Shown piece by piece: positions 889 through 22,560 of a stretch of 51,591 bases of DNA. The notes below the pieces were generated by a model. The model was not told the origin of the DNA, searched no databases, and worked only from the letters and a program-made list of their open reading frames with translations. Source of the stretch: a virus; the IMG/VR virus record IMGVR_UViG_3300044820_000144, positions 1 to 51,591 of that record; one strand, 5' to 3'. Numbering within the stretch: position 1 is the first letter of the stretch; each line of letters begins with the position of its first letter. The position numbers were made by a program, and so were the translations under genes.

Positions 889-894
889 AACGTT

Positions 895-1080
895 TCAGCT
901 CCCTGAATCACAATGTGCGCGAGCGCAAGTGACGCTCTCGCAGGCGCGGTGGCATTCGTTGCACAACAGGTCGCCGGTGCTCAGGCAGATGACGGCGCAC
1001 GTCGCCGGATGGGTGGCGCACAGGGGTGCGCCGCACCCCTCGCACGAGCGGACCTCGTCGCAGCACGGGGGTGTTTTCAC
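895..1080 (-). CDS. small Cys/His-rich putative zinc-binding protein
   Basis: GGAGG RBS before GTG 1080; several CxxC/CxxH pairs; stop codon lies within the TTCAG..CTGAA motif. Confidence 0.6.
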   Translation of the reverse strand: MKTPPCCDEVRSCEGCGAPLCATHPATCAVICLSTGDLLCNECHRACESVTCARAHCDSGS

Positions 1081-1167
1081 CTGGCCTCCAAACGCCGACG
1101 AGCCACCACGGATGCTTCCGTGGTGGCCCCAGAGTGTCAATCCTACGCCTGTCAGTATGGCACTACT

Positions 1168-2097
1168 TCACTCGTTCGGCGGTCCCCCCACCTGGTCGAC
1201 GGTGCAGTCGTCGACCGCCAGGTCACGCCGCAACCCCGCGAACACCGGCTGCCGCAACCGCCGGCCCGACCCGATTTCCAGGAACGTGACCTCCACCACG
1301 ATCGGCTCCCGCCGCTGCAGCATCCCCCAGATTTCGGCGATATCGGCGTTACTGAATCCCGACCCCACCGACCCGATCCCCACCGTCGCGCCAGACACCG
1401 GGTCCAGCAGGCCCAGCTTCAGGGCACCGAAGACCCCCGCCCGGGACCCCTCACCCGCGTCGTACCCGACCACCACCGCACTGATCCGGTGGGTCCGCTT
1501 CACCTTCAACCAGGCCGAGCTGCGCCGCCCCACATACCGGCCGTCGTGCCGCTTGGCGACCAGGCCCTCCAGGCCCATGTCACACACGACCCGCCACATC
1601 ATCGCCCCGTCCACACTGACCGGCGGCGACGTGATGGAATGCATCTGCAACCCCGCAGCCAGCTCCCCGAGCTGCTCACGCCGCCCCAGGTAGGACAACG
1701 CCCGACAGTCGACCCCCGCCCGGATCAACACGTCGAACACCACGAACTGCGCCGGAAACCGGGCCGCCATCGTGGCCGCCGCGCGCTCGCTGCCCTGGGC
1801 GTCGCGGCGCTGGACCCGGCCGAAGTCGGGGCGCCCGTCGGCGTCCGGGCAGACGATCTCCCCGTCGAGGACCATGTCGCCCAGCCCCGTGGCCGTGCGC
1901 ACGACGTCGGGGTAGCGGTAGGTGATGTCCCTACCGTTCCGGTTAGTGATCGTCACCTTCCCGCCGGAGACGTGCAGCAGTGCACGAATGCCGTCCATCT
2001 TGAACTCGAAAGACCAACAGTTGTCCTGCAACAGGCGTGTGATCACCGCCTCGGGTGGGCCGCTGGTCGGCGTCGCCAGCATCAGGGCAGGCGTCAT
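1168..2097 (-). CDS. ATP-dependent DNA ligase (LigC/LigD ligase-domain type)
   Basis: EFKMDGIR (motif I), VLDGEIV, FVVFDVL, LEGLVAKR, WLKVK, OB domain with GSVGSGFS and RLRQPVF; GAGGAG RBS before ATG 2097. Confidence 0.92.
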   Translation of the reverse strand: MTPALMLATPTSGPPEAVITRLLQDNCWSFEFKMDGIRALLHVSGGKVTITNRNGRDITYRYPDVVRTATGLGDMVLDGEIVCPDADGRPDFGRVQRRDAQGSERAAATMAARFPAQFVVFDVLIRAGVDCRALSYLGRREQLGELAAGLQMHSITSPPVSVDGAMMWRVVCDMGLEGLVAKRHDGRYVGRRSSAWLKVKRTHRISAVVVGYDAGEGSRAGVFGALKLGLLDPVSGATVGIGSVGSGFSNADIAEIWGMLQRREPIVVEVTFLEIGSGRRLRQPVFAGLRRDLAVDDCTVDQVGGPPNE

Positions 2098-2191
2098 CGA
2101 CTTCTCCTCTCGGTATCTGTTCAGCCCAGCACGGGCTAGAGGTGCCGCGCCACCGCCGCACGGGTGAACCGCGCGGCGGTGGGCGGGGGAG

Positions 2192-2267
2192 TGGCAGCGC
2201 CGACGGGACTCGAACCCGTACATGTGCGGGGTGATGCCCCGGTGTCCTGCCGTTAGACGACGACGCT
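2192..2267 (-). tRNA. tRNA-like gene with abnormal anticodon arm (nominal AUC, G73, encoded CCA)
   Basis: Acceptor AGCGTCG/CGGCGCT+GCCA; D arm GTCT-AACGGCA-GGAC; T arm ACGGG-TTCGAGT-CCCGT; anticodon arm CGGGG-CATCA-CCCCG lacks U33. Confidence 0.75.
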
Positions 2268-2271
2268 GTAG

Positions 2272-2346
2272 AGCCGCCGACGGGAATCGAACCCGCGCCT
2301 GTCCGGGGTGCAATCCGGGCGCCCTTGCCAATTAGGCGACGACGGC
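2272..2346 (-). tRNA. tRNA-like gene with 8-nt anticodon loop (Cys GCA / Ala UGC ambiguous)
   Basis: Acceptor GCCGTCG/CGGCGGC, U73; D arm GCCT-AATTGGCAA-GGGC; T arm GCGGG-TTCGATT-CCCGT; anticodon arm CCGG-ATTGCACC-CCGG. Confidence 0.75.
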
Positions 2347-2366
2347 ATGTTCTCGTGTCGGGTGGT

Positions 2367-3437
2367 TCACTCGCCGCGCTTCGCGACGGACATGTCGATG
2401 CCGTTCATGCGCCGCACGCAACGCTGCCACGCCTGCTCGCACTCCGCCTTGGTCCCGTCGACCGGGATCTTGCCCACCTCCTGTCCCTTGTACGTGACCA
2501 TGGTGAATTTCGCGTCGCCCGCCTCGGCGATCGTGGCACCCATGTTGCGTAGCCCCGACTTCAGCTTGCCGGGGGTGTTGGGTATGCCGCTCTTCTCCTT
2601 GCGTGACCCGCCACCGCCCCGCGACTCCCTCTCGCTGATCAGCCCCGTGGTGAAGTACGCGGCGATCACCATCGGCAGGGTCGGGTCCTTGAAGCCCACC
2701 ACGACCATGTTGTCGCCGCGGTGGAACCGCAGCAGCGCGAAGCCCCGCCACGACGACGACGCGTCGACCTCCACCCGGTCGGCGTGCCGGGCCACCGACT
2801 CGCACTGCGCCAGGTCGATCCCGTGCAGCGCGGTCACGTCGTCGTGGAAACCCAGCGGCGGCCCGTCCCCCAGCCCCTGGGCCAGCAGCTCCCGCAGCTT
2901 CCACGCCTTGCCGGAGATGGCCCCCACGTCCCAGCTCTGCGAGGTGCCGGGCAGCACGGTGTACTGCCGGGGCCGGGGCGCCTGCTCGGCGGGGGCTTCC
3001 TGCCGCCACGTCGCGGGCGGCACCGGCCGCAGCCGCTCAGTGGGGGCCCCGCCGGGCGACACCACCCGCGTCGGCGCGACCGGGACAGCCCGCTCGGGCT
3101 TGGCGGCCGGCTCGGGGGCCGGCTCGGGGGCCGGCTGGGGCTCGGGCGCCGGCTGGGCGGGTGCGGCTTCCTCCACCTCCTGGGCGGCCAGCTGCTCCAT
3201 CACCAGGCGGTGACGTTCGGCGAAGTCCATGCCCCCGGCCCGCCTGCGCGTGGTCGCCGGGTTGGTCGCAGCCCGGGGGAGGGACAGCCCGTCGGGCTGC
3301 GGTGCGTTGTGCACCGTGACCTCTCCGTCGGCGTCCACCGTCACCCGGGACCAGTCGTCCTCGCACTGCGCTCGCACTCTGCGGCGCAGCGCGAGCGGTA
3401 GGCGAGCGATCTCGCGGGGGTAGGTGGCGGGTGCCAT
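2367..3437 (-). CDS. multidomain hypothetical protein; possible DUF4258/RelE-like and HicA-like C-terminal domains
   Basis: 356-aa ORF with Pro/Ala linker; ATG 7 nt after CATACT -10 (leaderless); domain calls rest on loose pattern resemblance only. Confidence 0.65.
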   Translation of the reverse strand: MAPATYPREIARLPLALRRRVRAQCEDDWSRVTVDADGEVTVHNAPQPDGLSLPRAATNPATTRRRAGGMDFAERHRLVMEQLAAQEVEEAAPAQPAPEPQPAPEPAPEPAAKPERAVPVAPTRVVSPGGAPTERLRPVPPATWRQEAPAEQAPRPRQYTVLPGTSQSWDVGAISGKAWKLRELLAQGLGDGPPLGFHDDVTALHGIDLAQCESVARHADRVEVDASSSWRGFALLRFHRGDNMVVVGFKDPTLPMVIAAYFTTGLISERESRGGGGSRKEKSGIPNTPGKLKSGLRNMGATIAEAGDAKFTMVTYKGQEVGKIPVDGTKAECEQAWQRCVRRMNGIDMSVAKRGE

Positions 3438-3441
3438 GCGC

Positions 3442-3454
3442 GTCAGTATGGCAC
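3442..3454 (-). promoter_or_regulatory. repeated extended -10 promoter GTGCCATACTGAC (identical copy at 1151-1163)
   Basis: 13-bp identity at two intergenic sites upstream of minus-strand genes; TGn-CATACT. Confidence 0.55.
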
Positions 3455-3588
3455 CCGATCGGGTCGGTTGGTGGCCCTACGTCGCGTAGAGAACGCGGTA
3501 GGTGATGGGCCGGGTGTGGCGGGTGGGACGAACACGGACGATCTGCACCCGGCCCCGCCCCTCCTGGGGCCGGGTGCAGCATCCCGCG

Positions 3589-4503
3589 TCACGACGCCAG
3601 GGGCGGGTTCTGCCGGTCGGGCGTCTGCTCCTTCGCGGTGCGCCGACGCGGGGCCCCCGGTGCCGCCTTCTTGGCGGCCGGGCGACGCCGGGGGGCGGGC
3701 GGCTCCTCGACGGCGGGCGTGGCCGCCTCGTGCTTGGCGACGAACTCCAGCAGCGCGGCCCCCAGGTCGCCGACGGTGGCGGTCTTGTCGGCCAGGGAGA
3801 CCGGCGTCGCGGACTCGACCAGCTTCGCCAGGGCCGCCGCGCGCCGGTCACGGTAGTTGGCCTCGTCGTAGGGGGTGCACAGGATGTCTGCGGCGTGCTC
3901 GGCCATCGCCAGGTACTGCTCGTTCAGGGTCCCGCCGACCTGCGGGCGGGCCCGGACCAGCTCCGGGCGGGCCAGCTGCCGCATCGTCAGCACCCCCTCC
4001 AGGGTGAAGACCTGGAACAGGGCCGGTGCCCCACCGAAGGAGAACTCCCCGATGAACCCCTTCTCCGCGTGCCGCCCGACCAGCGTGGACAGCAGGGCGT
4101 ACCCGTCCTCGAAGCCCTTGCGGGGGGCCAGGTAGTAGCTCTTGCCGGTCGGGAACAGGCCGGACAGCTCCGCCGCCGGGTGCACGGTCAGCGGGATCGT
4201 CTTCTTCTGCTCCTCGGTCGCGGCCAGCTCCTGGACCGCGGTGGTGTCGAGCATGACGACCGCCCCGCCGGCCGCACGGCCCTTGCGGAACGTGTCCCGG
4301 TCCTTGTTGTCGCACTCGGGGCAGTAGTCGACCCGCTTGATGCGGGAGGGCGCGGTGCCCTCGTGGACCGGGTCGCCGTCGTGGGTGCACAGCGAGATCA
4401 GACCCGCGTCCTCGTCCTCGACGGCACCCTGAATGCCCATGGGCACCGTGATCGGACCGAGCTGGACGGTCGCCACCCGGAACGTGCGCGCTGCTGCTGC
4501 CAT
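3589..4503 (-). CDS. ku: Ku-like DNA end-binding protein
   Basis: TVQLGPITVPM..., SRIKRVDYCPEC, FRKG, YYLAP, GYALL; basic Pro/Ala/Lys/Arg tail; AGGAGG RBS before ATG 4503. Confidence 0.8.
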   Translation of the reverse strand: MAAAARTFRVATVQLGPITVPMGIQGAVEDEDAGLISLCTHDGDPVHEGTAPSRIKRVDYCPECDNKDRDTFRKGRAAGGAVVMLDTTAVQELAATEEQKKTIPLTVHPAAELSGLFPTGKSYYLAPRKGFEDGYALLSTLVGRHAEKGFIGEFSFGGAPALFQVFTLEGVLTMRQLARPELVRARPQVGGTLNEQYLAMAEHAADILCTPYDEANYRDRRAAALAKLVESATPVSLADKTATVGDLGAALLEFVAKHEAATPAVEEPPAPRRRPAAKKAAPGAPRRRTAKEQTPDRQNPPLAS

Positions 4504-4671
4504 GACTCTTCCTCCTGAACTGCAGAGATGGGGTTCGGATTTCACACAAGGGGGGTGGTGCAGAGGGTGGGCACCTCACACAAGCCTGGGGTGTGCCGTA
4601 TCTCCAGGCGTTGGAATGGCACCCACGAGTACCTGATCGGGCTACCGGAATCACCCCGACGGCCCAAACGA

Positions 4672-4705
4672 CACGAGCCCCGAAGCACAGGGCTTCGGGG
4701 CTCGT
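4672..4705. terminator. strong hairpin, probable intrinsic terminator
   Basis: CACGAGCCCCGAAGC-ACAGG-GCTTCGGGGCTCGTG inverted repeat. Confidence 0.6.
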
Positions 4706-4768
4706 GCGCAGAGGGCCCTGGACGAAGCAGGATCCTCCGGCGGCAACCGGGGTGCGCCGGCTGCCGGG

Positions 4769-5071
4769 TCAGTGGTGCAGCCGGGCCAGGGCCGGGCGTT
4801 GCCGCCACCGCTCGATGGCCTGGCGGCTGTCCACGTGGTCGGGCTCGACCTGCTCGTCGTCCTGGTCGGGCTCGTCGTCCATGACGATCCCCTCCAGCAC
4901 CTCGACCTGCGACGCGGCGGCGGCGGCGGCGGCCAGGTAGTCCTCCAGGCTCGCCTCCAGCAGGACCATGGCCGCATCGACCCGCTGGGCGCAGACCAGC
5001 GTCCACACGTGATCTTTGAGGCCGTCGACGATCTGCTCGACGGTGCGGTGCGGAAGCGCGGTGACGGTCAT
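4769..5071 (-). CDS. hypothetical acidic protein
   Basis: GGAGAGG RBS, ATG 5071, 100 aa. Confidence 0.6.
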   Translation of the reverse strand: MTVTALPHRTVEQIVDGLKDHVWTLVCAQRVDAAMVLLEASLEDYLAAAAAAASQVEVLEGIVMDDEPDQDDEQVEPDHVDSRQAIERWRQRPALARLHH

Positions 5072-5189
5072 CAGCTCAACCTCTCCATGGTGGACGGCGA
5101 CCGTGCCAGCTGGACGCCTGGAGCACCAGACGCTAGGAGCGCCCACCACCTCACGAGAGGGAAAGGCTGCGAAGTCGGCCGAATGTTCT

Positions 5190-5852
5190 CTAGTCGTCGG
5201 TCGAACGGGCGACGACCGGAAGCGCTGGGTGAGGCGACAGGCGGTAGAGCCCCCCGAAGGTCCGCGTGTGCCCGTCAGCGAGCACCAGCGCCCACCCCCC
5301 GCGGACCTCGCCCTGCCCGATGATGATCGCGCCCATCGAGTAGGGCCGCTCCACCATGTCGCCCGCCTGGTTGCGGGCATGGCGCACCGTCACGCGAGTA
5401 CGCCCGAGCTTGGTCACCTCACCCCGGCGCTGGCCCTGGTCGGCGACGACCCACACTTCCTGCCCGACCGTGAAGTCCTCCACGGTGTGCACCCGCATCT
5501 CACGCCTCGCGGGCAGCCACGCCGTCACGTAGCAGTACCCGGCCGACGCGTTGGTGTTCGCGTGGACGACCAGCTCATCGTCCATGTGCAGGATGAAGTC
5601 CTCCCGCTCGCGGGTGGACATCCACCCCTCGGCGAGCATGTCGGCCAGCAGGTTCCGCAGCCGGGCGGGGTCCAGCGTGGCGTTCAGGACCTGAAACAGC
5701 CGGTCCTTCGCCTCCTGCGGGCCGTCGGCGCCCTGCCGGTCGCCGACGAAATCGACGTCGCCCCCCTGGGTCACAATCAGCCGCGCCCCCCACGCGGCGA
5801 CCGCGTCGTCGGGAATGACGGCGGGTGAGCCGAATCCCGGGTCGAGAGCCAT
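5190..5852 (-). CDS. hypothetical protein with SH3/KOW-like C-terminal region
   Basis: 220 aa, AAGGA RBS; FTVGQEVWV...GEVTKLGRTRVTV. Confidence 0.65.
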   Translation of the reverse strand: MALDPGFGSPAVIPDDAVAAWGARLIVTQGGDVDFVGDRQGADGPQEAKDRLFQVLNATLDPARLRNLLADMLAEGWMSTREREDFILHMDDELVVHANTNASAGYCYVTAWLPARREMRVHTVEDFTVGQEVWVVADQGQRRGEVTKLGRTRVTVRHARNQAGDMVERPYSMGAIIIGQGEVRGGWALVLADGHTRTFGGLYRLSPHPALPVVARSTDD

Positions 5853-6012
5853 GCGTTGTCCTTCCTATTCCGATTCCAGGTCTTGCAAAGCTGACAATTC
5901 GTCAAGGATGTCGCTCAACAGGCCGTCCGCGACGGCTTGGCGAAGGTCCACGCACAGGCTCACGATCTGGTCCAACGTGCCCCCTCCTTGGGACAGCGGG
6001 ATCAGCGGCAGG

Positions 6013-6444
6013 TCAGCAACTGATCCCGGTCTCGAACGGCCCGAGGGTGGCCTCGCTGGTGTGCGTCTCCCCGTTCGCCGACACCTTGATCGCCCACGCG
6101 AACGTGTCCCCGAGGGCGATCACCTCGATCGTGCCGTCGCCGTCGGGCTCGCCGACGAACCACGCCGCGGGCACGTTCAACCCCCGGAAGAAGGCGACCG
6201 CGTCGTGCTGGGCGGGGGTCAGCACCCCCGCGACCGTCCCGAGGTCATGGCCGTACCGCTCCCGCAGAGCATCGGACAACAGGCCAGCCAGCTGGGCGAG
6301 AGCGGGCACCGGCATGACGATCCCCGCCGTGTGCCCACCCCCGGCCACCACCAGGTCCAGGTGATCCTCCGGGACCGGGTCGTCGCCGGCGTAGATGCTG
6401 GCCGTGGCCCCGTTCAGGCCGCGCACGGTCGCGTCGTTCCCCAT
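6013..6444 (-). CDS. hypothetical protein
   Basis: GGAGG RBS; start coupled to upstream stop. Confidence 0.6.
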   Translation of the reverse strand: MGNDATVRGLNGATASIYAGDDPVPEDHLDLVVAGGGHTAGIVMPVPALAQLAGLLSDALRERYGHDLGTVAGVLTPAQHDAVAFFRGLNVPAAWFVGEPDGDGTIEVIALGDTFAWAIKVSANGETHTSEATLGPFETGISC

Positions 6445-6641
6445 CACACACCTCCCAGTCGAATCCGACACGCCTCGATCTCGGCAGGCGTGAACAACCA
6501 CTCCTTGTTCGGCTGCGGGACATGCTCCAGGCCCGCCGTGATGGCGGCAGCCAGGACCGCCTCGACAGCGGCCGGGGCGTACCCGTCCACCACCAGCACC
6601 CGCCGCGCCTCACCGTAGGTCCGCAGCGCGTCATCCCTCAC
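6444..6641 (-). CDS. hypothetical protein
   Basis: GTGA-coupled to upstream ORF, 65 aa. Confidence 0.55.
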   Translation of the reverse strand: MRDDALRTYGEARRVLVVDGYAPAAVEAVLAAAITAGLEHVPQPNKEWLFTPAEIEACRIRLGGV

Positions 6642-6901
6642 GGCGCGCCTTCCTCGGGCTCGGCGTCGTTCGTGGACACCTCGGCCCTGATCTTGTCGTT
6701 GATCGGGCCGAACAGATCGAGCACAGCCCGGTCATCGAGCGCATAGCTCTTGAGCAGCTTCCGGCCCTCGATGTGCAGGTAGGTGCCACCGTCCGCGGTG
6801 CGGCTAGCGTCCAACACCACGCTCTCGACGGTGCGACCACGGGCGTCGAAACGACGACCCGTCGCACGACCCTTGGCCGGGAACTCCGCGTCAGCCCTCA
6901 C
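6638..6901 (-). CDS. hypothetical protein
   Basis: 87 aa, overlaps both neighbours in the operon. Confidence 0.55.
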   Translation of the reverse strand: MRADAEFPAKGRATGRRFDARGRTVESVVLDASRTADGGTYLHIEGRKLLKSYALDDRAVLDLFGPINDKIRAEVSTNDAEPEEGAP

Positions 6902-7379
6902 GACGAGCCTGCAGGGCCTTCGCGTCGCGCTCGGCGTCGACCATCTCCTTCTCCCGGCCGGGCATGACCGACCGGACGGTGGCGTAGCAGATGACGCCCC
7001 AGCCCAGCTGCGCCAGCTTCTCGGCGACGGCGGCCTCGACCAGGTCGCGCAGGTGCTGGGCGGCGTCCTCGTCGGTCGTCGCGCCGTAGTCGGTGGTGTA
7101 GTCGGAGATGCGGTAGGCCAGGCCGAGGTCGATGTCGACGGACCGACCCACGGTCCCGGCCGGGTCGGCGGGCAGACCCATCCGGAGCCGCGTGGCGACG
7201 TTCAGGATGTCGTCGATCGTCGACCACGCCCCCTCGTGCGTCTTGTGGGTCGCGCTCTGCGGGGCCCGCTCACGTCGGGCCAGCTCGACCTGCTCCTCGA
7301 TGTAGGAGCGGTTGGAGCCCATGTCGAAGCCCCACTTGCGGATCCACGGGTAGTCGTCGGCGGTGCGCTTGTCGGTCAT
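6891..7379 (-). CDS. hypothetical protein
   Basis: AGGAGG RBS, 162 aa. Confidence 0.7.
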   Translation of the reverse strand: MTDKRTADDYPWIRKWGFDMGSNRSYIEEQVELARRERAPQSATHKTHEGAWSTIDDILNVATRLRMGLPADPAGTVGRSVDIDLGLAYRISDYTTDYGATTDEDAAQHLRDLVEAAVAEKLAQLGWGVICYATVRSVMPGREKEMVDAERDAKALQARREG

Positions 7380-7435
7380 GATGATGTGCCTCCTGGTGTC
7401 AGGTGATTGCGTGGTTTCAGGTCCTTGAAAGGCCG

Positions 7436-7801
7436 TCAGCGGCCGGCGGCCCAGATCCGGTGCACCATTGCTCGGCTGACGCCGTACTTGACGGCCGTCG
7501 CCTGGGCGGTCAACAGTCCGTTCTCGGCGAGGATCTCCGCCCGGGTCGGGTCATCGATCCTCGTGGTCAGGTAGCGCTCGGCCTCGATCCGCTGCCTCAC
7601 CCAGGGGCGCATCTCCTCCGCGAGGTAGACGTTGCCCATCTCCAGGGTCGCCACCGGTGCGGGGAACCCCTGAACGCGGTACCACGTCCAGGTGCGCCCC
7701 CGCTTCAGCGGAGGTTTGCCCAGCTCCTCGCACACCGTGTCGGCGTATGCGTGGATCTCCGCCTGCCCCCACAGGGTCGGGAATCCTTCGCGCGTGGTCA
7801 T
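7436..7801 (-). CDS. AlpA/excisionase-like DNA-binding protein with a second C-terminal HTH
   Basis: LWGQAEI...TWYRVQGFPAPVATLEMGNVY; C-terminal ATAVKYGVSRAMVHRIW. Confidence 0.7.
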   Translation of the reverse strand: MTTREGFPTLWGQAEIHAYADTVCEELGKPPLKRGRTWTWYRVQGFPAPVATLEMGNVYLAEEMRPWVRQRIEAERYLTTRIDDPTRAEILAENGLLTAQATAVKYGVSRAMVHRIWAAGR

Positions 7802-7823
7802 GGTCGTGCCCCTTGTCGTTCGG

Positions 7824-8906: not shown

Positions 8907-8948
8907 GGTCGTCCTGCCTTTCAGTTCCTGAATCCGTTGACTGTTGCT

Positions 8949-9200: not shown

Positions 9201-9201
9201 G

Positions 9202-10601: not shown

Positions 10602-10641
10602 GGCGTTCCTCCTGGTGTTTTCAGGCCCCTGAAAGGGGTGG

Positions 10642-11295: not shown

Positions 11296-11349
11296 GCCGT
11301 CCTCCTGCGGTGCGTGGTGGGCGTTCAGACCTGTGAAATCCTGTCGGAC

Positions 11350-13060: not shown

Positions 13061-13104
13061 GACCCACTCTCCTTCGCCCCCGACGTTCAGAACCTGAAAC
13101 TGAC

Positions 13105-14181: not shown

Positions 14182-14218
14182 TGCGCCTCCTGTTTCAGGT
14201 CCTGAACAGCCGAGATCT

Positions 14219-15043: not shown

Positions 15044-15067
15044 GACTCTCCCTCGGTAGACACAGAA

Positions 15068-15098
15068 GGCCGGGCGCCCCCCTGGCGGGCGCCCGGCC
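15068..15098 (-). terminator. intrinsic terminator within the leftward arm
   Basis: Minus strand GGCCGGGCGCCC-GCCAGGG-GGGCGCCCGGCC then TTCTGTGT; directly after a TTTCAG..CTGAAA motif. Confidence 0.65.
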
Positions 15099-15119
15099 GG
15101 TTTCAGGGACCTGAAAGGC

Positions 15120-15665
15120 TCAGGTCGTCCAGCGAATGCGCTCGGGCGGCACGTCGTAGCGATAGCCGCCGATCGTCGCCGGGAAGGCCAGCTCGATCGA
15201 GTGCAGCCCCTGCCGGTTCGTGGTCAGCACGTCGCAGCGCACCCACTCGCCGCTGTCCATGAGGTATTCCGACCTGCGCCCACCCGTCAGCGGCACCGTC
15301 GGCGGGTCGTAGGTGGCGAGGAGGCGTTGCAGGTTCGCCAACGTCTCCGCCTCGCTGCGGCCCGTCCGCGCCGAGATCGACGCGACCAGGTCGTTCCGCT
15401 CCTGCAGGCGCGCCGCCTCCTCGCGCAACGCGTCCGGCTCGTGCAACGCGATCTGCGCCAGCGTGATGCTGACGTCACTCGTCCCGATGTCCCCGTCCGT
15501 GATGCCCCGGGCCGCGTAGCCCTCCGCCAGGCGCTCGGCGGCGAACGCCCGCAGGTCGTCCAGGCTGATCTCGTACTCCTCGGCCAGCGCCTCGGCCGCC
15601 GCGTACCCGTTGTCATGCGCGGTGGGTGGTCTCGGGCCGATCGGTTCGGCGTGCAGCGGCACCAT
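15120..15665 (-). CDS. hypothetical protein
   Basis: GGAGG RBS, ATG 15665, 181 aa. Confidence 0.6.
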   Translation of the reverse strand: MVPLHAEPIGPRPPTAHDNGYAAAEALAEEYEISLDDLRAFAAERLAEGYAARGITDGDIGTSDVSITLAQIALHEPDALREEAARLQERNDLVASISARTGRSEAETLANLQRLLATYDPPTVPLTGGRRSEYLMDSGEWVRCDVLTTNRQGLHSIELAFPATIGGYRYDVPPERIRWTT

Positions 15666-15733
15666 TGCCTCCGGGTGCTCGGTGGTGCAGGTGGACGGGC
15701 AGTCGGCCCAGTGGCGGGCGCCCGGTCGGCCGG

Positions 15734-15991
15734 TCACGGCGTGCCCGAACAGTCGGAGTCGCCGTTGGCCTTGAACGTGCAGGTGAAGGTGCGGCCCTGG
15801 TTGTCGGTGCTGGTGTAGACGTCGTGACCCTGGAAGTCCTTCACCACCTTGGTCGTCGCCGAATACTGCGCGGGCTGCACCGTGGACGAGGACGACGACC
15901 CGCCGCTGCACCCGTGGGGCAGGAACAGGATCAGGGCGCCGATGACGACGGCGACACCGAGACCACCGCCGGAACCACTCGAACTCGACAT
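15734..15991 (-). CDS. small membrane-anchored/secreted protein
   Basis: AGGAGG RBS; hydrophobic segment LGVAVVIGALILFLP, then Ser linker and Cys pair. Confidence 0.65.
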   Translation of the reverse strand: MSSSSGSGGGLGVAVVIGALILFLPHGCSGGSSSSSTVQPAQYSATTKVVKDFQGHDVYTSTDNQGRTFTCTFKANGDSDCSGTP

Positions 15992-16090
15992 GACTGCCTC
16001 CTGTGCTTTTCAGAGCCCTGAACTGAACCGGCCCCCCGCCGTCCGGGTGAAGTCTTGTTACGTCGTCGCGCCCATCGCCATACGAAAGGC

Positions 16091-16363
16091 ATGAACGAGA
16101 AAGCGTGGTGCCGACGCCTGCACGAACAATTCCCGGGATGGAAGGTCTGGTACGGCACCTTGCCGCCCGAATGGTTCGCCGCCCCGATCGCACGGAGCAC
16201 TGACCTGGACGACGCTATGCGAGACCCCCACCGTCTCGGTCCCTACAGGAAACCGCAGATGCTTCGGGAGCAGATGCGGCAGCGGTATGGAGCCGGAGAT
16301 TACTGCGACACCTGTGGTGTCCCGTGGGAGCACTGTGGGCACCGGCGACCGGAGTTGGCCTAG
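16091..16363 (+). CDS. hypothetical protein, lone opposite-strand insertion
   Basis: GAAAGG RBS; LHEQFPGWKVWY; C-terminal CDTC..HCGH. Confidence 0.6.
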   Translation: MNEKAWCRRLHEQFPGWKVWYGTLPPEWFAAPIARSTDLDDAMRDPHRLGPYRKPQMLREQMRQRYGAGDYCDTCGVPWEHCGHRRPELA

Positions 16364-16394
16364 CCGCTAAGCCGTGCACCACCCGGGGGGACGT

Positions 16395-16856
16395 TCAGTC
16401 GTGGCACCAGTTGGGGGCGTGCGCCGTGTCCGCGTGCACCGGCCACGTCTGCGCGCCGCACGTCAGGCACATCAGGTCACGGACGTACTCGAAGATCCGC
16501 TCCATGAGCGCCGGGTCGTCCGACAGGTAGGACACCGTGCCGCCCTGCTCGTACTCGGCCGCGATGCCCTCGGGCCCGTGCTCGCCCGTGGCCCACATGT
16601 TCGTGCACGCCGACTCGTCCTCGATCTGTTCGTAGTCGGCACGTAGGTGCCCGGACGGCTTCACGTACCGCGTCACGTACTGGTTGCGCGTCTCGTCGGT
16701 GTGCTGGCACGGGCTCGCCTTGCTCATGCCGTGACACGTGCCGAAGTAGCGGACCTCGATCCACTTCAGACCGACCGCCGTGGGGTCGAGAATGCCCTCG
16801 TCGAGCAGTCCGGCGATCTGTTCGTCACTGAAGACCCGGGTGGGCTGACTGGTCAT
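16395..16856 (-). CDS. hypothetical Cys/His protein
   Basis: AAGGA RBS, ATG 16856. Confidence 0.65.
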   Translation of the reverse strand: MTSQPTRVFSDEQIAGLLDEGILDPTAVGLKWIEVRYFGTCHGMSKASPCQHTDETRNQYVTRYVKPSGHLRADYEQIEDESACTNMWATGEHGPEGIAAEYEQGGTVSYLSDDPALMERIFEYVRDLMCLTCGAQTWPVHADTAHAPNWCHD

Positions 16857-16887
16857 TTCCTTGTCCTCACTGCGAGCGGCTGATGCA

Positions 16888-16940
16888 TACAATGCTAGAC
16901 GCCCGCCGCTGTAGATGGCAGACGCCGAACGGGTGACACC
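16888..16940 (-). promoter_or_regulatory. internal promoter homologous to 12701-12750
   Basis: Minus strand GTGTCACCCGT...TACAG...CGTCTAGCATTGTA. Confidence 0.55.
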
Positions 16941-16958
16941 ATTTCAGGACGCTGAACG

Positions 16959-17375
16959 TCACTCCACGGTGATGTTCAGCGGCAGGGGAGGAGACCACCG
17001 CCGGGATTCGAGCGGCGTCGTGCCGTGCTTGCCCACACCCACCGCCAACCAGCGCGGCGCCTCGATCCGCTCGAAACCCATCGATGCGCACGCCCACCAC
17101 TCGTCGCCGACCAGCACCACGTCACCCACGGACAGCGAACGGTTCTTCGCCGTCCGGTAGGCCACCGCGTCCGGGTGCGGGATGCCGAACTGCGGGTCAT
17201 CACCCACGTTCAACAGGTGGTAGATCATCTCCGCGACCGCGCTCGGCGACTGCTCCACCTCCAGCCGCTCCAGCACGTACACCGGCACCAGCGGGTGACC
17301 GGGACGGTAACCCAGCCACGCCTCGCTGCGCCCGACGTCATCCGTAGCGATGTTGTGGAACACCACGATGCGCAT
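16959..17375 (-). CDS. YodL-like domain protein
   Basis: AEMIYHLLN...RSLSVGDVVLV...WACASMGFERI matches the YodL-like SLSVxDVV...GF pattern. Confidence 0.65.
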   Translation of the reverse strand: MRIVVFHNIATDDVGRSEAWLGYRPGHPLVPVYVLERLEVEQSPSAVAEMIYHLLNVGDDPQFGIPHPDAVAYRTAKNRSLSVGDVVLVGDEWWACASMGFERIEAPRWLAVGVGKHGTTPLESRRWSPPLPLNITVE

Positions 17376-17377
17376 GA

Positions 17378-17836
17378 TCAGTCCCCCTCGGCGATCGGCA
17401 CACCGCGGCGCACGATCGCGTTCACGATGACGAACACCAGCGAGGGGTCCTCCTCCCACTCGGCCGAGTCCCACATCACGGTCTCCGTGCCGCCGTTGAA
17501 CAGGTGGATGCTGCCGCCCGGCTCGCCGTACTGGCCGCGGATCTCGACGCGGAAGGCGTCCGGAGCCACGTCGAGGGAGTCGATGATCGCCTTCACCTTC
17601 TCGGGCTCGACGATGCTGTCCAGCCCGTCCGGGTAGTTGGCGACCAGGTCCGCCACGAACTGCGGCAGGTCCGGGATCTCGTCGAACGACTCGTCGTGCA
17701 GCAGCGTGGAGCTGCCCTCCACCCGCACGTCGTACGACGCACCCCCCGCCGTCCAGATCGTCTCGATGACCGTGAACGTGACGCCCCGCACCATCTCGGT
17801 CCGGACGACCCGCTGTGTGCTGATGCCGTTGCCCAT
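17378..17836 (-). CDS. hypothetical acidic protein
   Basis: GAGG RBS, 152 aa. Confidence 0.65.
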   Translation of the reverse strand: MGNGISTQRVVRTEMVRGVTFTVIETIWTAGGASYDVRVEGSSTLLHDESFDEIPDLPQFVADLVANYPDGLDSIVEPEKVKAIIDSLDVAPDAFRVEIRGQYGEPGGSIHLFNGGTETVMWDSAEWEEDPSLVFVIVNAIVRRGVPIAEGD

Positions 17837-17922
17837 GATGACCTCTCTGTTTCAGGTCCTGAATCTGTCCGAGCGGACAGCGCGGCGCAGGTCCCCCGAC
17901 CTGCACCACGCGGCACCCTCGA

Positions 17923-18486
17923 TCAGGGGTGACGGCGGATCATGCGGGCCGTGTTGTCCTCGCAGATCGACCAGCCCACGTGCCACGTCGAGCGGACCTG
18001 CGGCCCGCGCTCCGGCTGACGCTCCGGGAACGCGACCAGCTTGACCTGATCCACGTGCAGGCCGGCTGCGCGCGAATGCCCGTTGTTGTTGTCCGCCGTC
18101 CACGCCACGTGCAGGCGGTCACCCACCTTCAGGCTGCGAACGATCGTGGCCCAGACGTCACGCTGGTACGCGCTGTAGAAGCAGGCGGGGGAGTCGGGGT
18201 TGCCGCTCTCCCACCGCCACCCGCCCGTCCCGTCCGCGGCACCGTAGCCGACTGCGTCGGCCGTCGTGGCGATCTCACGGCCCCGGGTGCCGGAGTACAT
18301 GTCCACCGTGAACAGTCGCTGCTGCTTGGCCGTGAAGATCGGCGGGTCGCCGTAGGCGCGGGTGTACACGCGGAGGTACGACCGGCCGTCGTGCAGGTGC
18401 AGGCTCACGTCCTCGCACACCTTCATGGCGGCCAGGTCGTCGCCGGTCAACGTCACGACCTGCGTGTCGGTCGGGGTCTCGGTCAC
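17923..18486 (-). CDS. hypothetical protein
   Basis: GGAGG RBS, 187 aa. Confidence 0.65.
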   Translation of the reverse strand: MTETPTDTQVVTLTGDDLAAMKVCEDVSLHLHDGRSYLRVYTRAYGDPPIFTAKQQRLFTVDMYSGTRGREIATTADAVGYGAADGTGGWRWESGNPDSPACFYSAYQRDVWATIVRSLKVGDRLHVAWTADNNNGHSRAAGLHVDQVKLVAFPERQPERGPQVRSTWHVGWSICEDNTARMIRRHP

Positions 18487-18527
18487 TGCATCCTCCAGTT
18501 TCAGGATCTGAACGGATCACTTACTCG

Positions 18528-19079
18528 TCAGTCGTGCTGCTTCCAGGTGGGGTCGCGGCGCGTGAACTCGCGCAACCGCTCGACCCGCTGCGTGCTCGGC
18601 GGGGTCGGCGGGCGGTCGGCCGCCGAGGTGTGGAGGGTGACGCGCACGGCGTCCGGGTTGCTGTGCTCGCTCATCGGCCGGTTGCACGTCAGGCAGGCCG
18701 TGTCGTCGTCCCCGATGTACGCGTGCCCGTCGTCCGGATCGGTGGGCGGCGTCAGATCGGCGTGCAGGTTCTCCAGCTCCTGCTCGTGCGCGGCGCACCA
18801 CTCGTGCCAGCCCGGCGCGAATGGGCACGAGTCCCCGTGGTCGCACGAGAAGTAGTTGCACAGGAAGAAGACGAACTCCTCCAGCGTCTGCATCCACCCG
18901 TCCGTACCGCCCGGGAAGAAGTCGGCCGACTCCTCGACCGTCGTGCCGTCCGCCAGTGCCAGCCGGTAGTTCGGTGCGGCGACCTCGATCGTCGAGCCGT
19001 CCTCGAACTTCCACTGCGCCATCAGCCGGGGGCTGATCGTCCAGCCCGGGGGGAGCGCGTTCGGGTTGATGGTGTTCAT
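18528..19079 (-). CDS. hypothetical protein with HxY..CxxC..H module
   Basis: GGAGG RBS, ATG 19079. Confidence 0.65.
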   Translation of the reverse strand: MNTINPNALPPGWTISPRLMAQWKFEDGSTIEVAAPNYRLALADGTTVEESADFFPGGTDGWMQTLEEFVFFLCNYFSCDHGDSCPFAPGWHEWCAAHEQELENLHADLTPPTDPDDGHAYIGDDDTACLTCNRPMSEHSNPDAVRVTLHTSAADRPPTPPSTQRVERLREFTRRDPTWKQHD

Positions 19080-19105
19080 GTCGTCGTCCTCCGTGGCCTG
19101 GGCTT

Positions 19106-19345
19106 TCAGGACTGTGAAATGAGCAGGGTCTCCGCGTACCGGCGCAGCCAACCCGGCTCACGATCACCGGGCAGGCTGTCCAGCCACTCGCGGGTCCCCG
19201 TGTACTGGTTCTTGTGCTCGACCGGCACGCCGTTGCACGCGGCCGTCACGACCGCACCGCCGTAGTCGATGGGGCAGGTTTCGAGGCGCCCGAACTCGAC
19301 CGGCTCCAGGTCGAGGAGGCAGGTGAAGATCACGGAGCGGCGCAT
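19106..19345 (-). CDS. hypothetical protein
   Basis: ATG 19345; stop codon supplied by the repeated motif. Confidence 0.55.
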   Translation of the reverse strand: MRRSVIFTCLLDLEPVEFGRLETCPIDYGGAVVTAACNGVPVEHKNQYTGTREWLDSLPGDREPGWLRRYAETLLISQS

Positions 19346-19380
19346 GGTGGGTCCCTTCAGGGTTGGAACAGCAGGGTGAT

Positions 19381-19728
19381 TCAGTAGCCCATCGACTCGG
19401 CCGTGTGGTCGCGGTACCGGCGCCGGTTCGGGTCGCAGCTGTAGTCGTCGCACCCCACGTAGTGTTCGCGCCGGAAACCCTCGTCCGTGATCGCGTAGAA
19501 CTCATACGTCGGGTAGCCGTCCGCGGTGACGCCACGCTCCAGCGTCTGCGAGTGGTGCCAGTCCACGGCCGAATCGGCGACCAGCGACCCCATCCAGACC
19601 TCGGCGAACGTCATGCCCTCGGGCGGGAACCAGACGTAGTCGTTCTCATAGAAGCCGTCACAGTCGCGCGAGTCGCTGGTGACGTGAGCGTGGGTGATGC
19701 GGGACATCGGGACGATCGTGCTGGTCAT
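19381..19728 (-). CDS. hypothetical protein
   Basis: GGAGG RBS, 115 aa, ends YRDHTAESMGY. Confidence 0.65.
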   Translation of the reverse strand: MTSTIVPMSRITHAHVTSDSRDCDGFYENDYVWFPPEGMTFAEVWMGSLVADSAVDWHHSQTLERGVTADGYPTYEFYAITDEGFRREHYVGCDDYSCDPNRRRYRDHTAESMGY

Positions 19729-19751
19729 GGCAACCTCCGACGCAAGGATTT

Positions 19752-19874
19752 TCAGGACTTGAACAGGTAGCGGACGACGATCACGATGCGGACGCGGATG
19801 CGCCGCCGGGGGGGAGGAGTCGGCAGGGTCGACAAGGCCAACCGGTGCAGCTCCGCCGGGTCGAGATCACGCAT
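19752..19874 (-). CDS. 40-aa peptide (not in ORF track)
   Basis: MRDLDPAELHRLALSTLPTPPPRRRIRVRIVIVVRYLFKS*; flanked by two motif copies, stop in motif. Confidence 0.4.
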   Translation of the reverse strand: MRDLDPAELHRLALSTLPTPPPRRRIRVRIVIVVRYLFKS

Positions 19875-19892
19875 GGGCTTGACCACGTCCTT

Positions 19893-20213
19893 TCAGGACT
19901 TGAACCGATCACAGTCACGGGGCGGCACGCGCTCGCCGAGGCTCCGTGCGAACGCCTCCCCGTCGTTCGTCCGCTGGGGGTTCAGCCGGGGCCGCTTCAC
20001 CCCGCGCGTCTCGCCTGCCATCCGCCGTGCTTCGGCCAAGAGCGCCGTAGCGATCCCGCGACGCCGGTACTCCGGCTCAACGTGGATGTCCAAGATCAAG
20101 CCGCTGCGGCGTGACCAGATCAGTACGGCAACCGCGCGGCCATCCTGTTCGGCCGTCAACCGGTGCGGCTCACCCATGCGGCTCGAATCAAGGTCATACG
20201 AATAGGTGAGCAT
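19893..20213 (-). CDS. GNAT family acetyltransferase
   Basis: ILDIHVEPEYRRRGIATALL acetyl-CoA motif; GGAG RBS. Confidence 0.85.
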   Translation of the reverse strand: MLTYSYDLDSSRMGEPHRLTAEQDGRAVAVLIWSRRSGLILDIHVEPEYRRRGIATALLAEARRMAGETRGVKRPRLNPQRTNDGEAFARSLGERVPPRDCDRFKS

Positions 20214-20235
20214 CAGCTCCCCTTTCAGATCGGAC

Positions 20236-20831
20236 GTGCAGAGCGACACACCTACCGGGCGGCAGGTGCATCACTCAGTGCGTTCGATCAAGTCCGTGGT
20301 TTCGGGCGCTACCCCGTAACGGGCACTCACGGATTACCCCGGTACGCCATATCGCTATGCGTCAGGCGTACATCTCTCATTTACCGGATCTCTCCGGCGG
20401 CACGCTTGCCTCCTCTGCGATCACCGACCTTTTCAGGGTCAGAAATCGTCAGCCGCTCAACCCCTCGCGGGTAGCGGGCTAGGTTAGACGCCTCATATCG
20501 CGTCCGTCTGCACGGCCAATCGAGGTTCAGCGATTGCCGGTTTCCCTAGCGTTGTCCCATGCGAACTAGAACCGTGTGGACGCGCGGCATGTCTCCCCTA
20601 GGGCAGTCGGCCGGTTGTCCGCGCGCATGGTGTACGTTTCGTGCGCTCGTCCTCTTTTATTGTTGGTCGGCACAATGCCGCCTATGTGCGTGCGCGTCCC
20701 TAGCTCGCAATGCCTGCACCCTGTGACGCCGTGCGGGTGTGGTGCATCGGCCAATGGCGGGAGCGTGCTGGTGATCGCTTCCTGCGGTCCCCACTACCGG
20801 GCCGGTCCGTCCCCCCGGACGGACACGGCCC
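20236..20831 (-). ncRNA. candidate large structured non-coding RNA
   Basis: ~600 nt with no credible ORF; about 10 hairpins; three GNRA loops and G-U pairs on the minus strand; long-range helix 20236-20242/20507-20513. Confidence 0.55.
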
Positions 20832-20844
20832 GATCGAAGGGAGA

Positions 20845-21699
20845 TCAGGCGGCGGACGTGGCGATGATCAGCGGGCCGAAGCTCTGCGGCGCGCGCGGGC
20901 GGACGATCTGACCGGACACGCGCTCCGGGGAGTCACCCACGACCGCGCCCGACTGCACGGCCGTACCGGCGAACCGCGAGAGGGAGTCGATGAGCGCGCG
21001 GGCCGCGTCGGCCTGCGCCTGCGTGGCCGTGGCGCCGGACAGCTTGCCGATCGGGCCCGTGATCGCCCGGAGCATGGCGTCCACGTCCACCGTGTCGCTG
21101 ACGGGCGCGTCCGGGACGTCGTCGCCACCCTCGCCACCCTCGCCGGTCGCCACGGCGGAGGACTTTTCAGAGGCAGAAACGATCACGGCCGACTCACGCT
21201 CGATCCGGGCGACGTCGTCCGCCATGAGTCCACGGATCGCCTCGATCTGGGAGGCGGCACCCGCGATCGTCGCGCGGGCGATCTTCGTGCAGCCGTTGTT
21301 GTAGAGCCGTTCCACGATTGTCTGGATCTTGCTCGGCGTGTCGATGTACTCCGCCATGAATGCCCGGTCCTCGGCGTCCGCCGTACCGGCGTACACGGGC
21401 AGCACGAGCACGGCGCCCGTGAGCGCGTGGTAGCCGAGGTACGCGTTAGAGGTACGGGTCTTGCGCACCCCCAGCTTCAGAACCTCGGCGCGCACGGCGG
21501 AGATCGTGACCCCGGAGTGCACGGTGCGGTGAAGGCCAGTGGCGGACGCAACGAATGCGTCCCGCGCGGCAACGTCGGCAACGTCGCACGCCTTGACCAG
21601 AGCGGCGGCACTCGCGGCCGTGAACGTGGTGCTCTCGGGAGTGGCGTTGTGCGCCCGGCCGGTCACGTCGCGGATCGGGGCGGTGAGCATGGCGTTCAT
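20845..21699 (-). CDS. hypothetical Ala-rich helical protein (second gene of leftward arm)
   Basis: GGAGG RBS, ATG 21699, 284 aa. Confidence 0.7.
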   Translation of the reverse strand: MNAMLTAPIRDVTGRAHNATPESTTFTAASAAALVKACDVADVAARDAFVASATGLHRTVHSGVTISAVRAEVLKLGVRKTRTSNAYLGYHALTGAVLVLPVYAGTADAEDRAFMAEYIDTPSKIQTIVERLYNNGCTKIARATIAGAASQIEAIRGLMADDVARIERESAVIVSASEKSSAVATGEGGEGGDDVPDAPVSDTVDVDAMLRAITGPIGKLSGATATQAQADAARALIDSLSRFAGTAVQSGAVVGDSPERVSGQIVRPRAPQSFGPLIIATSAA

Positions 21700-21754
21700 G
21701 GCGAAACCTCCGGTGTGGGGGTGGAGCGGGATGGGTGAGTGGGTGGAGCGCGGG

Positions 21755-21943
21755 TCAGATGGTGGACGCGTCGGAAGGCCAGAAGTTGCGGCGCCCGGCC
21801 GCACGGCGGTCGTTCTTGCGACGGTCGATCTTGCGCAGGCTGCCAGCACGCGGCGTGTAGGCGGGAGCGGTGCCCGTGCGCCGGTCGTTCGCCTTACTGC
21901 TGTCCGTCGTGGCGAGCACAACCGGGGGAACGGAAACGCGCAC
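21755..21943 (-). CDS. small basic Arg-rich protein (first gene of leftward arm)
   Basis: AGGAGG-5nt-GTG; RKIDRRKNDRRAAGRR. Confidence 0.6.
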   Translation of the reverse strand: MRVSVPPVVLATTDSSKANDRRTGTAPAYTPRAGSLRKIDRRKNDRRAAGRRNFWPSDASTI

Positions 21944-22019
21944 GGAAACCTCCTAAGTAGGGCCCACCTGTGGCATGGCACGCCCCTGGCGGGGCTGCTG
22001 GGCTCCCTTGCCGACCCCT

Positions 22020-22560
22020 AAAGAGTAGCAAGCGCAGTGCACACTGCGCTGTAGACCATATGGCTGACAGTGAACGGGTGAAATGTGGGCCGTTTCAGGG
22101 TCTGAAAGCCCCTACATAAGCGGACATATCATGCCTGAAAATGGGTTGATCCATTCCACCACCCATTCGGCGGTCGACAGGACAAGCCCAATCATGAGGG
22201 GTGTTGTGGTCGATTCTCGGGCATGTGGGTGTTAATCAGACACCACGAAGATCGCAAGAGTAGTCACCCGAACGGACTCACCCGTTCAGCCGATTGACAC
22301 CCAACCAGGCCATCCCCCCCGTTACTAGAACAAATGGACATTCAGGGTGTTTCTATCCCCGGCTGCATCCATTTCACGATGGCAACGATTCGATTTAGTG
22401 TCGTACTACCGCGGCGTTGTCACTGTCATCCGTCGTGGCGCGCGTCCGGCATTTCCGCTGGTCAGGGGCTTGGGGGATGCGCGCGACCATCGGCGAATGC
22501 CGATAGATCGATTCCGCATAACCGCAGGTCAGAGCTTGATCGTCAGAGAATGCCCGTGAA
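22020..22560. promoter_or_regulatory. divergent control region
   Basis: AT-richer, no credible ORF; leftward -10 TACTCT at ~22022-22027 beside palindrome AGCGCAGTG-CA-CACTGCGCT (22031-22050); several TCACCCG boxes; motif copy 22093-22107. Confidence 0.65.

Follow-up and report, generated by a model that had tools for sequence, protein, structure and literature searches.

A polar array of palindrome-like elements at gene junctions in the leftward arm of an uncultured soil actinophage

The DNA analysed here (the window, 51,591 nucleotides) is the first 51.6 kb of IMG/VR virus record IMGVR_UViG_3300044820_000144, an uncultured soil actinophage. The full record, here called G000, comprises 136,218 bp with 69.4% G+C and has a CheckV completeness of 95%. 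Our subject is a short element, TTTCAG-N3/4-CTGAAA, that recurs at the gene junctions of a long leftward arm. The array that it forms is real, polar and restricted to one arm. Among the explanations weighed below, the one we prefer, tentatively and in the knowledge that it may well be wrong, is that proteins dock at an array of sites resembling stoperators or operators and thereby control the leftward operon.

Starting at about 22.0 kb, the leftward arm crosses position 1 and extends to about 126.9 kb, some 31 kb in total. Positions 1-136 and 136083-136218 form a 136-nt overlap of the record ends (99.3% identity). Because the ends repeat, the genome is circular or terminally redundant (its IMG/VR class is linear) and the gene at 1-888 therefore runs on at the far end, at 136 kb. 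Genes were called from codon statistics and ribosome-binding sites (RBS), which is crude, but the frame plots of the arm are unambiguous. No sigma-70-like promoters were found within 1-19999, so the arm looks like a single long operon, for which brakes along its length would be of importance.

Number, position and form of the copies

The strict form, with two complete six-base halves, occurs three times. The 5+5 core (TTCAG-N3/4-CTGAA) has 13 copies in the window (12 within 894-22106 and one at 28500) compared with 0.02 expected from shuffles, and the whole 136,218-bp genome contributes just one more, at 100165. A relaxed scan was kept symmetric, requiring at least 10 matches out of 12, and cannot favour either half; it returned 23 distinct sites against 1.2 in shuffles. 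Twenty of these lie within 893-22107, which is 15.6% of the genome (P = 8e-14), and 19 (83%) are non-coding or straddle a gene end (P = 1e-14), in a genome whose non-coding share is 11.8%. Together with two weaker copies at 19355 and 20223 the arm holds about 21 to 22, in agreement with the initial annotation, which had counted about 21 by eye and considered that they mark gene boundaries. The genome-wide enrichment check that it had proposed shows that motif density is not equal in the rest of the genome or within coding sequences. Its statement that the motif is confined to the leftward arm holds for the array and has to be relaxed for two good intergenic copies in rightward operons (28499 and 100164).

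A pattern-free k-mer check of the sense strand of the arm gave CTGAAA as the top hexamer (17 copies for 0.92 expected, P = 3e-16) and CCTGAAA as the top 7-mer (12 for 0.54). Between 7.4 and 22.1 kb the motif is found at 14 to 16 of the approximately 20 junctions with a gap of at least 20 nt and at none where genes overlap or abut. The sites named by the symmetric scan outside 893-22107 are 28499, 92463, 100164 and 128348. That at 92463 sits in a coding sequence and is possibly a chance match. The site at 128348-128362 is an AT-only variant (TTTCAT-TTT-TTGAAA), intergenic in the wrapped part of the arm and 2.6 kb downstream of a gene for a ParB-like protein (see below). It is a possible member of the motif family.

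On the sense strand the consensus is nTTTCAGG-N-CCTGAAAc, with T-T-C invariant on the left and C-T-G-A-A on the right. Eleven arm sites have three nucleotides (N3) between TTCAG and CTGAA and eight have four (N4), the two spacer lengths already noticed by eye. The better-matching half is the downstream one at 16 sites and the upstream one at two, with five ties (sign test p ~0.001), and this bears out the asymmetry originally described, an invariant 3' CTGAA facing a 5' half that drifts. In the rightward operons, the copies at 28499 and 100164 carry CTGAAA on the plus strand, which is the sense strand there. The element is polar and oriented with transcription on both DNA strands.

All of the arm copies lie on the minus strand. 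Three have perfect 6+6 halves: 10619..10634 (N4, between a stop codon and AGGAGG), 15101..15116 (N4, 3 nt past a stop codon and directly upstream of a 12-bp GC hairpin with a T tail, which at 15098-15068 is the sole strong terminator-like hairpin in the arm) and 22093..22107 (N3, located 149 nt upstream of the first open reading frame (ORF) of the arm, within the divergent control region). At four copies the TGA of the motif is itself a stop codon, exactly as first reported for the ORFs ending at 895, 19106, 19752 and 19893. These are 893..908 (N4, ATTCAG-GGAG-CTGAAA, ORF 895-1140; the GGAG spacer is a Shine-Dalgarno sequence and the next ATG follows 4 nt on), 19104..19119 (N4, 5' half TTTCAC, ORF 19106-19345), 19750..19764 (N3, ORF 19752-19886) and 19891..19905 (N3, ORF 19893-20213, acetyltransferase-like).

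The other intergenic copies are 7415..7430 (N4, with a degenerate 5' half, TTTCAA), 8919..8933 (N3, with a start codon 12 nt further), 11323..11338 (N4, TTTCAC...CTGAAC, just downstream of a DUF932 gene at 11409-12656), 13085..13099 (N3), 14193..14207 (N3, with C-AGGAGG directly after), 16008..16023 (N4), 16942..16957 (N4, 1 nt past a stop codon and 85 nt ahead of the next start), 17850..17864 (N3, with an RBS after it), 18499..18513 (N3) and 20431..20445 (N3, TTTCTG...CTGAAA, within a 630-nt non-coding stretch). The two examples quoted in the initial annotation, at 10618 and 14193, read as it gave them. The copies at 7415, 11323 and 17850 come just after a small GC hairpin (for 11323, near 11350). 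Two copies lie within coding sequences: 5682..5696 (N3, in 5190-5852, and one of the two copies with a better upstream half) and 21165..21179 (N3, in 20845-21699). The weak copies are 19355..19369 (GTTCCA-ACC-CTGAAG, intergenic and below the 10/12 threshold) and 20223..20237, in which the 3' half alone is present (TCTGAAAG), 9 nt ahead of the start of 19893-20213. Outside the arm, 28499..28514 (plus strand, N4) is intergenic in a rightward operon, with CTGAAAA on the sense strand of that operon.

Distances to the neighbouring genes are short and variable. From motif to next start codon there are 4-85 nt (no more than 27 nt at 13 of 17 junction copies), and from the previous stop codon to the motif TGA 0-28 nt at 13 of the 17. 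At six copies an in-frame motif TGA is a second in-frame stop, 15-27 nt further on. No position outside the 16-nt motif is conserved and there is no similarity between the flanks of the copies; a search of the arm for paralogous genes also found none. The copies are therefore not relics of duplication, and a gene-duplication origin was rejected. Other candidates were tried and discarded in the same way: an extended Shine-Dalgarno pairing with the 16S tail (by eye, GAAAGG adjoins only at three or four copies), mimicry of a tRNA T-arm (only two or three copies fit) and look-alikes of the host operators Rex, Zur, LexA, GlnR and PhoP, none of which fits.

The spacing of some copies is regular. Five successive copies (14194-17865) are spaced by 908, 907, 934 and 908 nt, and another pair (21166-22107) by 928 nt. 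These units of about 900 nt are not similar to one another in sequence and differ in how many genes they contain. The triple coincidence of spacing within 1 nt has, on a rough estimate, a chance of about 0.01.

Pairing within the element and its absence from relatives

If the element acted as an RNA hairpin, its stem would be weak. The core stems are worth -0.5 to -4.4 kcal/mol, and when the local 56 nt are folded, the minimum-energy structure includes the core hairpin at only about five of 20 sites. Covariation was tested on register-true alignments, with the N3 and N4 classes taken separately: none of the 12 pairs has a double-sided or wobble change, and all 21 departures among 126 cells break a pair. 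An Rfam search of the motif found no known RNA family. Selection acts on the letters of the two halves and not on the pairing between them, while the loop is constrained in neither sequence nor length; the data do not support a selected RNA hairpin, which is weakened as an explanation.

Proteins that read RNA hairpins usually read the loops and tolerate covarying stems, and dimeric DNA binders give fixed arms and a free centre. Because the arms are fixed, the spacer free and the sites polar like stoperators, half-site reading on duplex DNA is favoured. The perfect copy at 22093-22107 is possibly outside the transcript since, by eye, it lies upstream of two of three TANNNT candidates. The initial annotation had offered a menu of translation or processing, antitermination and repression. 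From this menu a repression-type DNA site is now favoured, and an RNA hairpin signal has lost ground through its weak stems and lack of covariation.

By sequence comparison the phage lineage is distant from cultured phages: megablast with 12 kb of the arm against cultured phages gave no match, and the portal had one distant match among 50,697 phage records. The available relatives are themselves distant, with about 78% nucleotide identity in one shared gene. No relatives emerged from IMG/VR when it was scanned with patterns from three arm proteins, and motif-pattern scans of IMG/VR and 185,579 species genomes gave only single chance matches among the matches listed.

The first relative, G007 (IMGVR_UViG_3300043331_000919, 79.5 kb), has a portal 42% identical to that of G000 and a syntenic structural module. 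The two have the arm-distal ligase, Ku-like protein and gene 1 in common, and no homologues of G000 4.7-50 kb were found in G007. G007 has no TTCAG motif. It carries a palindrome of its own, CAACG-NN-CGTTG, in 11 copies for 0.08 expected (L141-L144, 25-64 kb). Some of these palindromes stand just after start codons or inside two similar N-termini.

The second, L148, is a 16-kb part of the 137.9-kb metagenome contig WUUC01172195.1. Its DUF932 protein is 72% identical to that of G000, only three of its 26 genes have G000 homologues and the full motif is absent. Instead there are three other junction repeats in successive arm blocks (1.2-15 kb). The first is a hairpin followed by GGCTGTGTAAGTGC, in five copies, possibly promoter modules. 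The second consists of CCCACCACGGAGG leaders ahead of starts. The third, CCTGAAAGCAGGTACC ahead of ATG, takes the form CCTGAAAG-CAGGTACC-N5-ATG at three or four junctions of unrelated genes and amounts to the G000 downstream half fused to an RBS. Two further genomes, G008 (47 kb, complete) and G009, have only the ParB-like gene cluster in common with G000 and contain no array.

Similarity between G000 and L147, L148 and L149 starts and stops within a few nucleotides of ORF ends (12660 to 11403; from 14182 onward). The homologues of G000 genes in these sequences are not flanked by the motif, which is part of neither neighbouring module. Judged from these comparisons the arm is hyperplastic, with each genome having its own junction 'dialect'. 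Since the G000 dialect is not carried with single genes, it fits sites that co-evolve with a genome-specific reader. The comparison with related phages, as proposed initially, thus upheld a variable arm gene content and found the motif array missing from G007, L148 and G008. The suggestion that the element is a recombination joint gained no support from this: in these relatives, all distant ones, the same genes occur without the motif and homology ends at ORF ends.

Possible readings of the array

In the docking-site reading that we prefer, a phage-encoded, sequence-specific protein would dock on the motif in duplex DNA, either by dimerising or by means of two DNA-binding domains that are loosely coupled. 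The primary half-site would be CCTGAAA, with TTTCAGG, 1-2 bp away, as an auxiliary half-site. Such sites would stand at nearly every junction that is not translationally coupled over the promoter-proximal 15 kb of the ~31-kb accessory operon, with one perfect site in the divergent control region. If stoperators and KorB operators are a guide, occupied sites would most likely shut the operon down by roadblock or silencing, during lysogeny or after the early phase. We infer that the reader is a protein acting on DNA and, from the same analogies, that the effect of docking would be repression. In favour of this reading are the confinement of the array to the arm, the fixed half-sites around a free centre, the lack of hairpin selection, the polarity on both strands, the perfect copy upstream of two of the three -10 candidates, the probably temperate nature of the phage, an arm that looks like one operon, the absence of a duplication origin and a ParB/Noc/KorB-fold protein encoded in the arm.

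Several observations weigh against this reading. A rigid dimer would have difficulty with half-sites whose spacing shifts by 1 bp, and the sites fill one block, unlike prophage-wide stoperators. Other features hint at RNA or translation: many copies adjoin an RBS, four provide the stop codon of the upstream gene, and at 10 of 13 junction copies the TGA of the motif shares the upstream gene's frame (P = 0.0016), or at six of nine when the four true stops are removed (P = 0.04). In L148 only CCTGAAAG-CAGGTACC is retained, its distance from ATG being fixed. Finally, the ParB-like protein, one of the possible readers, has an invariant DGNHR where ParB has GERR, and it has homologues in G008, G009 and, by protein id, a 137-kb L148-type contig; no TTTC..GAAA palindromes occur in G008, G009 or the 16 kb of L148.

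A good part of this evidence would suit an element read at the RNA level, which is possible and, in our view, the less probable of the two. CCUGAAA on the polycistronic mRNA, whether or not its weak hairpin forms, would be read by a phage protein or a host nuclease and would set translation of the next cistron (like T4 RegA, or as proposed for the SAS (start-associated sequences) and their extended form, the ESAS, discussed below) or mark processing. Every site is sense-oriented, across three transcription units. Proximity to start codons (within 27 nt at 13 of 17 junction copies), the four stop codons, the Shine-Dalgarno spacer at 893 and the 10 of 13 TGAs in the upstream frame all point this way, and variable spacing would be harmless in RNA. 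The L148 repeat fused to an RBS at junctions of unrelated genes and the Arg-rich, 62-amino-acid product of the first arm ORF are also consistent with it, and in ESAS, too, one repeat is better than the other, the spacer varies and departures go uncompensated (PMC3203893). The reverse-complement partner tells against an RNA-level element, since it would be left without a role if single-stranded RNA were read. A hairpin, for its part, would have free loops and fixed stems, which is the wrong way round, and would be marginal and usually out-competed. In addition, the next start codon may be as near as 4 nt or as far as 85 nt, a promoter possibly lies downstream of the perfect copy at 22093 and there is no Rfam match.

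It is unlikely that the element is primarily a recombination linker, a 15-16 bp microhomology for swapping single-gene cassettes in which any regulation would be secondary. The hyperplastic arm would agree with this (three of 26 genes shared with L148, none with G007 for 4.7-50 kb), as would homology that starts and stops at ORF ends, the presence in each relative of its own junction repeats and the precedent of PeSL cassettes (PMC2839356). The homologues in L147, L148 and L149 without a flanking motif argue against a linker, however, and no breakpoint can be placed within the motif. Polarity and an invariant CTGAA are unneeded for microhomology. No integron-type cassette recombinase was seen, the sole recombinase found being a serine integrase.

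A number of phage proteins are candidate readers of the motif. The first arm ORF (21755..21943, minus strand) encodes 62 amino acids, 11 of them Arg, without a family match, and might bind RNA or DNA. The second (20845-21699, minus) encodes 284 amino acids and contains copy 21165; an Atlas search with this protein gave no match. A weak ProQ_C-like protein (5190-5852, minus) contains copy 5682. The others are a GerE-type helix-turn-helix (HTH) protein (113325-113606) next to the serine recombinase, a weak zinc-finger protein (36491-36799) and a full-length Lsr2 (34743..35096, plus) with dimerisation and DNA-binding domains, a binder of AT-rich DNA and thus a candidate partner or antagonist. No homologues of these six proteins were found in the motif-less relatives examined.

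The remaining candidate is an HTH protein of the ParB/Noc/KorB fold (130997-131932, L391:4997-5932, minus strand), which belongs to the same arm once the circular wrap is counted. A single-sequence model reached a predicted local distance difference test score (pLDDT) of 41; the alignment-based model, which was used, has a pLDDT of 92 and matches Noc, ParB and KorB in Foldseek (E = 1e-7). The protein has 66 homologues in uncultured phages, among them those in G008 (52% identical), G009 and, by protein id, a 137-kb L148-type contig. Its neighbours (129935-130984 and an Lsr2-RNase fusion at 131970-132593) are also common to G008 and G009.

This protein raises the prospect, which we rate as improbable, of a loading array in which a spacer-expanded parS-like site seeds a sliding clamp or spreading complex that would silence the accessory block or counter-silence it against Lsr2. 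The diverged protein, with its DGNHR box, would read polar parS-like sites about every 900 bp as an arm-wide silencer or counter-silencer, a proposal that we rate just as low. In its favour are the well-supported predicted fold, the outer bases of the motif (TTTCA/TGAAA), which are those of the parS half-sites TGTTTCAC-GTGAAACA (PMC7383237), the regular spacing over five sites and the presence of a phage-encoded Lsr2. There are also precedents: on plasmid RK2, KorB silences genes by way of palindromic OB sites that are dispersed (PMC11790492), and KorB, VirB and BisD all use a ParB-family fold to regulate genes from dispersed sites (PMC11790492, PMC10770331, PMC12409273). The proposal is countered by the 3-4 extra central bp compared with parS, the replacement of GERR and the lack of such palindromes in the complete G008, G009 and the 16 kb of L148, and it leaves polarity unexplained.

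Least probable is a phage-specific promoter or nut-like antitermination site ahead of each gene: nearly every copy does precede a gene, three directly follow a small GC hairpin in a terminator-then-promoter order and the Arg-rich first gene recalls lambda N, but there is no -10/-35 and no conserved downstream position, copy 15101 is upstream of a terminator-like hairpin, two copies are inside coding sequences, boxB-type sites are conserved in the loop instead of the stem, and an operon needs only one or two of them. Sigma region 2 was not found in the phage, and neither was a T7-type RNA polymerase, a weak negative since the search control matched nowhere. The motif was accordingly rejected as a promoter and, with its weak stem and no T tail, as an intrinsic terminator. 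A consensus scan of the divergent control region found no good promoter. By eye, this region contains a separate perfect 9+9 palindrome, AGCGCAGTG-TG-CACTGCGCT (22031..22050, minus strand), unrelated to the motif and situated between the two best candidate -10 boxes, TATGGT (22060-22055) and TACTCT (22027-22022). For the arm it may serve as a classical operator or as a hairpin in the leader.

A large serine recombinase (serine integrase, 113718-115259) with the adjoining GerE-type HTH gene suggests a temperate phage, and the phage is probably so. Two tRNA genes on the minus strand (2195-2267 and 2272-2346; Rfam 39 and 48 bits) occupy the gap upstream of the ligase gene. The distal arm encodes, also on the minus strand, an ATP-dependent DNA ligase (1168-2097) and a weak Ku-like protein (3589-4503), both also in G007, which make up an end-joining pair as in some mycobacteriophages. 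The right arm (within 23147-50362) includes a Uma2-type endonuclease (23147-23728), a ferritin-like protein, ThyX (39305-40042), a CHAP/peptidoglycan-binding lysin (41162-41917), a dCTP deaminase (49010-49564) and RusA (49979-50362).

Known systems and significance

Stoperators, SAS and PeSL cassettes, the analogues named at the outset, were the right ones for comparison. Stoperators are known in Cluster A mycobacteriophages, where they are of the L5 gp71 type (PMC9283540, PMC6550527), and in relatives of Streptomyces phage R4 (PMC10276819). They too are oriented with transcription (PMC4351075; PMC9283540) and, like the present array, consist of many copies of a short site in the short gaps of long operons of temperate actinophages. 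They differ in being asymmetric sites of 13-14 bp, bound by a two-domain monomer and present in both arms, whereas the element described here is a 15-16-bp pseudo-palindrome in one 15-kb block. Of the stoperator features, then, orientation tied to transcription is found and asymmetry is not, and 20 of 23 sites fall in one block. No gp71-like repressor turned up, although none was specifically sought.

Cluster O mycobacteriophages, which carry Ku, share with G000 an inverted repeat with a 3-bp spacer and a bias to the long leftward operon. Their 17-bp palindrome, TGTTCGG-NNN-CCGAACA, has more than 30 copies and is densest in that operon, and they carry genes with ParB-like domains (PMC4351075). 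Its arms are invariant, its spacer is fixed, one third of its copies are in genes and it is unoriented; in G000 the arms drift, the spacer is 3 or 4, the sites are polar and 83% non-coding, and the sequence is unrelated.

The SAS and ESAS of Cluster K, whose function was still untested in 2025 (PMC3203893, PMC12699233), lie just upstream of the starts of non-structural genes, as do the copies here. ESAS resemble the G000 element in being inverted repeats that are imperfect, in their variable spacer, in having one arm better preserved than the other and in lacking compensation for departures. SAS, however, contain an RBS whose distance from the start is fixed, and the arms of ESAS are 17 bp long, compared with arms of 6-7 bp, a start distance of 4-85 nt and a better downstream arm in G000. 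A fixed start distance together with an RBS is seen only in the L148 variant. PeSL cassettes of T4-type phages combine a strong sigma-70 promoter with a terminator stem-loop (PMC2839356). They resemble the present array as repeated junction elements in hyperplastic regions of small accessory genes and differ from it in that the G000 motif has neither promoter nor terminator stem-loop.

KorB OB sites, parS and NBS are likewise dispersed 13-16-bp palindromes with T-rich/A-rich outer bases, on mobile elements that encode an HTH protein of the ParB fold, and KorB employs its sites in long-range silencing (PMC11790492, PMC7383237). The half-sites of parS (TGTTTCAC|GTGAAACA) abut, whereas those of G000 are 3-4 bp further apart and the CTP box is not conserved. 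A ParB-fold HTH protein is thus present in G000, without abutting half-sites or co-occurrence of protein and motif in relatives. The conserved loop and covarying stem of nut/boxB are not seen either, the G000 stem being fixed and its loop free. Integron attC sites are imperfect palindromes of 57-141 nt with R''/R' cores, used by the tyrosine recombinase IntI; the present element has 15-16 nt, and a serine integrase is the sole recombinase found. The Streptomyces phage phiC31, a temperate actinophage with a serine integrase, reportedly has conserved inverted repeats (CIR), said to have been described by Ingham et al. in 1994 as a 17-bp repressor operator and as intergenic repeats of the early region. 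The CIR sequence is unrelated to the G000 motif.

Because it fails at least one defining feature of each of these systems, the motif is assigned to none of them. By analogy, its mode of action would seem closest to that of an array of stoperators or operators.

As the evidence stands, the finding is incremental and not a new principle. Short junction-repeat arrays recur in actinophages (stoperators, Cluster O palindromes, SAS and ESAS), and G000 unites traits that are otherwise found apart: palindromic half-sites, polarity, two spacer lengths and a lineage-specific accessory block. Were the ParB/KorB proposal true, the array would be part of the first such clamp-and-array system described in an actinophage. 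If its reader protein is found, the element could provide a compact orthogonal switch for high-GC hosts and would help to explain how phages control fast-evolving accessory operons.

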